Shown here: positions 34,384 through 34,845 of the stretch, piece by piece
Layout of the letters: each line of letters opens with the position of its first letter
Numbering within the stretch: the first letter of the stretch is position 1
NCBI GenBank assembly: GCA_044892505.1
Contig: CM097884.1
Span: 17,298,001 to 17,362,000 of the forward strand
From: Schmidtea nova
Taxonomy: Eukaryota
Direction: 5' to 3'
DNA length: 64,000 bases
The notes under the pieces: model-generated
What the model was told of the DNA's origin: nothing
The model's input: the letters and a program-made list of their open reading frames with translations, nothing else
Database searches by the model: none
Position numbers and translations under genes: made by a program

Positions 34384-34845
34384 TTATAAATACACAATAA
34401 TTCTTTCGTCTATTTCGAGATTGCACATCGGGCATTTGTCGCAATTGGCTGCACAGATTCCACAAAACCGAAAATGTCCACATGGTAAAAACATGATTTT
34501 ATTCTCTCTTTCTCGACATATGTAACACAGTTTAAATTTCTTAGCTGTCTCAGTCCCTTGTATCGTCCACTTGTTGTATGTTGGAGTTAATTGTTGCTCT
34601 AACTGTCTGCATTTTATGTTTACATCAGCATTTTCTAATCTCGTTCGGTACCACTTGTATCTAGTTGTTATATCTATTTTGTCTACTCTTTCCATTATTT
34701 TTATCAGCTCTGTTGTCTCTTCGGTTTGTGTCATGGGTTCTTTGAATCCGGATTCTCTTATTCGACTTATTTTCTCACATAGTTCATCGTATGTTTTGTT
34801 TTCCGTGTTTAAGAATTCTTCTATTTCTTTTAATTTATCGTTCAT
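34384..34845 (-). CDS. 153-aa protein with C-terminal IAP-type RING finger (no BIR)
   Basis: CYICRERENKIMFLPCGHFRFCGICAANCDKCPMCNLEIDERIIVYL* matches the IAP/MDM2/RNF34-type C-terminal RING (FxPCGHxxxCxxCA...CPxC, terminal aromatic residue). Confidence 0.85.
   Translation of the reverse strand: MNDKLKEIEEFLNTENKTYDELCEKISRIRESGFKEPMTQTEETTELIKIMERVDKIDITTRYKWYRTRLENADVNIKCRQLEQQLTPTYNKWTIQGTETAKKFKLCYICRERENKIMFLPCGHFRFCGICAANCDKCPMCNLEIDERIIVYL

Follow-up and report, generated by a model that had tools for sequence, protein, structure and literature searches.

The element and its genes

The window, a stretch of 64,000 nucleotides from Schmidtea nova contig CM097884.1, contains a 17-kb retroelement that is read on the minus strand. 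Self-BLAST revealed an LTR pair that matched over 2621 bp with 2 mismatches (99.92% identity) and lay 14,414 bp apart. The 5′ LTR (35243–37882, about 2.64 kb) has TG...CA ends, as read from the sequence, and the 3′ LTR occupies 20848–23468, its last ~19 nt and its flank being read as N. A PBS-like 18-mer starting with TGG is found 6 nt past the LTR end (35219–35236, minus strand); its complement ends in CCA and resembles a tRNA 3′ end, which may be tRNA-Pro-like. As to the polypurine tract and the target-site duplication, no distinct purine stretch precedes the 3′ LTR, and the flank of this LTR consists of N.

The coding capacity of the element is distributed over separate ORFs, all on the minus strand. 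Within the 5′ LTR, an ORF of 196 aa (35820–36410), preceded by an acceptor-like site, encodes a helical and then basic protein (KKKKK..RRRWKK) of no family; an identical copy is present in the other LTR (21406–21996). Downstream of the 5′ LTR (end at ~35243) and of the PBS-like 18-mer (35236–35219), and upstream of the true gag, lies a BIR-less ORF of 153 aa (34384–34845, read from 34845 to 34384), hereafter the RING ORF, which runs from ATG to TAA. It is separated from gag by a tandem array of a ~45-bp unit repeated 21 times, with a 41-bp variant in part (32878–33790; TRF score 1005); a degenerate array of 12–13-bp units (34220–34331) is also present in this interval. The gag ORF itself (28386–31667, 1093 aa) encodes a Ty3/Gypsy capsid, three CCHC knuckles and a long helical tail. 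Pfam recognized Retrotrans_gag (PF03732) above the cut-off as well as zf-CCHC, and in a comparison with the Atlas the best clusters were Ty3/Gypsy Gags (0.94–0.95), the rank-2 cluster being mostly from Platyhelminthes, which is a lead only. The gag frame stays open for 153 more codons on its 5′ side (31668–32126), which are basic and then acidic, contain no ATG and are bounded by an in-frame stop; the resulting frame of 1246 codons is the longest in the element. Near the end of Gag (28602–29201), a weak ubiquitin-like segment was noted (Ubiquilin-3 UBL, E 0.72; OTU1_UBXL, E 0.029).

The interval from gag to the 3′ LTR is taken up by other ORFs. The first (27416–28561, 381 aa) has a 176-nt overlap with the end of gag, in a different frame, and shows a weak FN3 match (fn3, E 0.015) and one transmembrane segment (hydropathy 3.0). 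It is followed by a coiled-coil-like ORF of 111 aa (26958–27293) with an acceptor-like site before its ATG, and by an intronless, full-length TRAF of 459 aa (25507–26886) comprising RING, zinc fingers, coiled coil and MATH domain. The latter assignment was provided by Pfam (MATH_2, E 2.4e-21; zf-TRAF) and by PDB matches to TRAF3, TRAF5 and TRAF2 for the MATH and RING parts. A second coiled-coil-like ORF (24299–25402, 367 aa) has no Pfam family and again an acceptor-like site before its ATG. The last ORF (23659–24222, 187 aa) displays a hydrophobic N-terminus, a heptad-like stretch, a transmembrane segment and a short tail, with no convincing family. Like the FN3-like ORF, it is a single-pass membrane protein, and the two could be receptor mimics or an env-like remnant.

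None of the 99 ORFs of at least 45 aa between 23400 and 37882 matched any pol family (PR, RT, RH or IN), and no Rfam family was found in the element. Paired TG...CA LTRs, a PBS-like site and gag are thus present as in Ty3/Gypsy elements, while the pol expected of an autonomous one is missing. The near-identity of the LTRs indicates a young copy and the absence of pol a non-autonomous one; the element is therefore a young Ty3/Gypsy insertion, devoid of pol and non-autonomous.

Its flanks are AT-rich (mostly 15–30% GC), which, like the cargo and the Atlas lead, suggests a planarian host. Copies of a repeat that contains an internal inverted arm are dispersed at 10739–10854, 11969–12226, 20410–20666, 37879–38140 and 48078–48239, frequently next to (AAT)n; the element lies within the (AAT)n of one of them, and another adjoins its opposite side. 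Elsewhere in the window there are mobile-element fragments unrelated to the element, namely two RT-bearing ORFs and the N-terminus of a Mos1/mariner-type transposase (16–750, 46142–46546 and 52109–52717), and degenerate fragments resembling a ribonucleotide-reductase small chain and a protein kinase (11496–11948 and 61720–62199).

Word-based homologue searches retrieved no relative of the RING ORF among 11 candidates and a single match to the TRAF among 3859, at 25% identity. With Gag residues 1–330, none was found among 465 longer proteins, which is weak evidence. Scans for related loci were empty for the RING ORF (metagenome and viral contigs), Gag (metagenomes) and the TRAF (viral contigs). 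Sampled words of 31000–35300 were present at 63–65% in four public runs from one study, which may be the source of the window itself; there were no RNA runs among the listed holders of these words.

Judged from published descriptions, the closest known system is that of the giant Gypsy elements Burro/GYPSM1 of planarians. Their Gag is described as bearing two or three CCHC knuckles, and they have tandem repeats as well as cargo of the MATH/TRAF, Smc-like, BIR, ubiquitin-like and BCL2-like kinds; in Dugesia tigrina, a TRAF is carried on an upstream accessory ORF (PMC6431247). The B-IAP of Burro1 combines BIR and RING and has been reported to shield planarian stem cells from caspases (PMC13465017, citing Lee 2026). 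Planarians have an enlarged set of TRAF genes (PMC6109357), and further background on Burro is found in PMC8532177, PMC11410931 and PMC13238120.

The element shares with Burro, as described in PMC6431247, long LTRs, a Retrotrans_gag domain with three CCHC knuckles, TRAF/MATH, coiled coils resembling Smc, tandem repeats, an accessory ORF that precedes the main one and cargo related to ubiquitin and apoptosis. The weak ubiquitin-like segment of Gag may echo the Ubi/SUMO-like motif of Burro. Yet, it measures 17 kb rather than >30 kb, and it has separate ORFs in place of one Gag-Pol polyprotein of ~4,900–5,100 aa (PMC6431247). It lacks the PR-RT-RH-IN and the BIR cargo that Burro has, its TRAF, unlike that of Burro, is complete and 3′ of gag, and it carries FN3 and transmembrane ORFs that the account in PMC6431247 does not list for Burro. 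The element is laid out like Burro, but we do not assign it to this group, from which it departs in size, pol and BIR.

The earlier note on this DNA had pointed to plant Ogre as the parallel for an ORF 5′ of gag. Ogre indeed has long LTRs and extra ORFs without an assigned function, but it is an autonomous plant element for which TRAF or RING cargo is not described in PMC6431247. Burro is the nearer precedent (PMC6431247; PMC13465017), so that animals already offer a precedent for ubiquitin/apoptosis cargo encoded 5′ of gag. We found in the literature neither a BIR-less RING ORF 5′ of gag nor a pol-less TRAF-bearing element, though Grohme 2018 and Lee 2026 (Dev Cell) may describe such a variant.

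The RING ORF and its class

The RING ORF is genuine, and we read it as an accessory gene of the element. An ATG-led ORF of its length did not occur in 2000 shuffles of the local 1.4 kb (maximum 101 aa), and its codon use (A3 of 0.48, against 0.51–0.55 in the other internal ORFs) was counted as the same A-rich use. Pfam detected zf-C3HC4_3 (PF13920) at residues 105–147 with an E-value of 1e-11, and the sequence ends in IIVYL. A search of PDB sequences gave 17 matches headed by the RING of XIAP (E 6.5e-10), followed by cIAP2, cIAP1, BIRC7 and MYLIP. The C3HC4 RING extends from C107 to C141, with N142 at the linchpin position and Y152 in the tail. All 8 zinc ligands are kept, and their spacing (C-x2-C-x11-C-x-H-x3-C-x2-C-x6-C-x2-C) is exactly that of XIAP.

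An AF2 model based on a 49-sequence alignment (pLDDT 84, pTM 0.51; an earlier alignment of 3 sequences had given a pLDDT of 50) predicted five helices across residues 2–104, followed by the RING, the packing of these helices being uncertain. The intact ORF between PBS and Gag, the helical N-terminus and the RING at the C-terminal end, as announced in the earlier note, were thus all borne out, the helices at the level of a model. No fold match was found for residues 1–92, a region barely covered by the search. Homodimer predictions scored 0.00 in two runs in which the alignment was not used, and they were not counted as evidence. A UBA-like N-terminus, proposed from a tblastn match to P0058, failed in pairwise BLAST, and a Mut7-C match (Pfam, E 7.7e-5) was dismissed as a chance match of a helix plus CxxC.

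The same note had called the gene BIR-less and its RING IAP-type. The first point was confirmed: Pfam detected a BIR in none of the 99 ORFs of at least 45 aa (23400–37882), and an HMM built from 24 BIR segments, which identified all 4 BIR proteins withheld from it as controls, detected none in the six-frame translation of the window (best E 2.9). Neither a UBA nor a CARD was detected in the RING ORF. Because there is no BIR anywhere in the element, the product of the RING ORF is not an IAP.

The second point stood in part. With the spacing of its zinc ligands, its C-terminal position, the preceding helix and an aromatic residue in the tail, the RING belongs with the dimer-forming IAP/IDOL class, and the same element encodes a TRAF. 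An origin from IAPs was not supported. A Foldseek search with the model put IDOL at the top, the E-values of cIAP2 and XIAP being almost the same; overlays on the RINGs of IDOL, cIAP2, XIAP and BIRC7 gave 0.6–1.6 Å, and a VIA structure comparison ended in a tie (Z 10.0 for IDOL, 9.7 for MEX3C and 9.4 for BIRC7). BIR-less RINGs of the IDOL/MYLIP, MEX3C and MIB1 type, also zf-C3HC4_3, are therefore equal or better structural matches, but the FERM, KH or ankyrin module of these proteins is replaced in the RING ORF by a short helical region. Among the best 150 of 1844 library matches, 28 carried a BIR (27 of the 148 scanned, plus one confirmed among the remaining two). In a quick ML tree of RINGs (146 rows by 66 columns, 6 rows without a regex match being left out), the query fell inside no supported clade. 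Descent from an IAP is thus unproven, since XIAP and IDOL/MYLIP match the RING equally well and the tree gives no supported placement. "IAP/IDOL-class RING", a designation drawn from sequence and model comparison, goes as far as the data allow.

Small proteins made of helices and a RING are common in large DNA viruses. Those of iridovirus (413R), Pithovirus, Marseillevirus and ascovirus are BIR-less and resemble the RING ORF in their small size, helical N-terminus and C-terminal RING class. However, their N-termini do not superpose on it (rmsd of 13–37 Å over the full length), and they belong to DNA viruses, not to retroelements.

One full-length BIR-less relative was found (P0008/P0152, on contigs of 1049 and 655 bp). 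It has 160 aa, is collinear with the RING ORF from end to end at 26% identity, terminates in IVIYLP and has Asp at the linchpin. Compared through the N-terminal part alone, the RING ORF and P0008 reached a score of 73, which none of 5000 shuffles attained, though unrelated helical proteins scored 63–65 (65 being the best of 134 other matches), so that the score of P0008 is only modestly above theirs. Furthermore, a tree built on the RING only did not join the two proteins. As the match is collinear and extends to the N-terminal part taken separately, the BIR-less design looks old, with moderate support, rather than a fresh truncation.

Catalytic anatomy of the RING

Y152 follows the last Cys by 11 positions; Tyr or Phe occupies this place in 115 of 128 matches. 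It is the penultimate residue, not the last one as the earlier note had implied by invoking a terminal aromatic. In cIAP1, this aromatic packs on the donor ubiquitin in trans and is required for transfer, while the RING dimer is built from the RING, the tail and the preceding helix (PMC6349121). The statement that IAP RINGs dimerise through this residue therefore needs amending: the residue is kept, but it would mainly prop the donor ubiquitin in trans (PMC6349121). The position of R614, another tail contact of cIAP1, is occupied by Ile. The tail comprises 12 residues after the last Cys, one below the commonest 13 and one fewer than in IAP RINGs; among matches with the same ligand spacing, a 12-residue tail was observed in 4 of 23 that carry a BIR and in 29 of 75 others. 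As it recurs among these matches, the short tail is not a sign of damage.

The linchpin position is occupied by Asn142 and hence by no basic residue. Among 129 matches, Arg was found there in 74 and Asn in 15, the latter in only 1 of the 23 BIR-bearing matches with the same spacing. In RNF38, a linchpin Asn lowers the binding of E2~Ub 42-fold, which makes it the second worst of 19 substitutions (PMC12326332, Table 1). Yet, binding does not follow activity among linchpin variants, XIAP is functional with Tyr at this position and Asn occurs naturally in RBX1, a RING E3 (PMC12326332); a basic linchpin is therefore not obligatory. On account of its Asn, and by analogy with these enzymes, the ligase is probably weak in priming E2~Ub yet live. 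The element-encoded E3 of the earlier note thus retained its RING-class anatomy, with a linchpin that speaks for a weak enzyme.

Possible expression and function

Splice-like signals suggest how the RING ORF might be expressed. A motif scan of the LTR identified two candidate donors reading AG/GTATGAG, at 37391 (37380–37391) and 36475 (36464–36475), the first of them some 100 nt downstream of a TATA-like box (37496); the LTR leader carries short uORFs only. A T-rich, acceptor-like tract (34848–34875) places a TAG 2 nt before the ATG of the RING ORF, and the acceptor-like sites on the minus strand are at 36414, 34848, 27297 and 25406. WWTAG was found 2–3 nt before the start of 4 of the 8 element ORFs but of none of 92 background ATGs with non-coding DNA upstream (Fisher p 2e-5), a motif picked after the sites had been seen; a looser acceptor test gave 4/8 against 16/92 (p 0.049). 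The second ATG of the TRAF has a similar TAG upstream, which falls outside the strict pattern. As the simplest reading, these motifs suggest spliced subgenomic RNAs off the LTR leader, trans-splicing being the alternative.

Our preferred reading, held tentatively at somewhat less than an even chance, is that the RING ORF encodes an attenuated, dimer-type E3 accessory protein in which helices have taken the place of BIRs for targeting and which, together with the element's TRAF, tunes host TRAF/IAP ubiquitin signalling. The mRNA for this protein would arise by splicing of the LTR leader to the acceptor immediately upstream of the ATG. In the RING dimer, Y152 of one chain would brace the donor ubiquitin of an E2 bound to the partner chain, the linchpin Asn making for a slow ligase. 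The helical region of ~100 residues, and not a BIR, would select the target. The likeliest job would be to tune TRAF/IAP signalling in cell death and immunity in the cells that express the element; unlike BIR-bearing IAPs, the protein would not block caspases directly.

The eight zinc ligands with XIAP spacing, the conserved Y152 and the overlay of the model on IAP/IDOL RINGs all argue for this, as do the architecture of P0008/P0152, the WWTAG before half of the starts, the Burro precedent and the Asn of RBX1. Against it, so young an insertion (2 differences in 2621) keeps its ORFs intact without selection, and the 42-fold loss measured in RNF38 means that the ligase may be near dead, even if binding does not follow activity (PMC12326332). 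The Ile at the position of cIAP1 R614, the small margin of the P0008 score, the RING-only tree and the post hoc choice of the acceptor motif also weigh on this side.

A PxQxT-type TRAF-binding motif, moreover, is absent from the RING ORF and from all 8 element ORFs. This also bears on the partnership of cIAPs with TRAF2 invoked in the earlier note. The contact between cIAP and TRAF2 uses BIR1, which is missing here.

We considered the possibility that the protein is a decoy, as the earlier note had proposed in speaking of poisoned host IAPs. A weak RING would then pair, through its helix and tail, with the RINGs of host IAPs or with the BIR-RING of a helper element, lowering their activity or driving their turnover, much as MDMX tunes MDM2. 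A dimer-type tail kept beside a poor linchpin (Asn here, Asp in P0008/P0152), the rarity of Asn among BIR-bearing matches and the absence of a BIR are what one would expect of such a protein. But host cells deprived of their IAPs should be more prone to die, contrary to the pro-survival role reported second-hand for the Burro1 IAP (PMC13465017), Asn recurs in related RINGs and in RBX1 and is hence no mark of a dead enzyme, and kinship with IAPs is unproven. We regard the decoy as unlikely.

To the same low degree, the ORF might be a relic, that is, a cut-down Burro-type BIR-RING gene or a captured host RING cDNA, intact because the copy is young. The near-identical LTRs, the loss of pol, the 5′ extension of gag without a start codon and the poor linchpin are consistent with this. 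However, no frame contains a BIR remnant, the N-terminal helices are common to a relative of similar length that is only 26% identical, and the acceptor-like site, start context and A-rich codon use are like those of the other cargo ORFs.

It is more doubtful still that the ligase serves the element itself by ubiquitinating its Gag, TRAF or membrane proteins in assembly, release or turnover, with no target in host signalling: all these partners are co-encoded, Gag has its weak ubiquitin-like segment and many viruses encode BIR-less helix-plus-RING ligases, but the TRAF encoded alongside, as a signalling adaptor with all its parts, speaks for host pathways.

An equally improbable, bolder reading would make the element a pol-less "signalling satellite" that rides on the pol of a helper. 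Its two membrane proteins, TRAF, BIR-less RING ligase and ubiquitin-like domain would form a kit in the style of a TNF receptor and redirect the death and immune signalling of the host. As in complex retroviruses, a separate RNA spliced from the LTR leader would serve each gene.

A related element design that keeps TRAF and RING without BIR and pol would separate a ubiquitin-ligase role from the blocking of caspases, and such cargo would be shown to persist in an element incapable of its own replication. At 153 aa, the protein is small and easily assayed. Should the acceptor sites be real, this would be gene expression like that of a complex retrovirus in an invertebrate LTR element.
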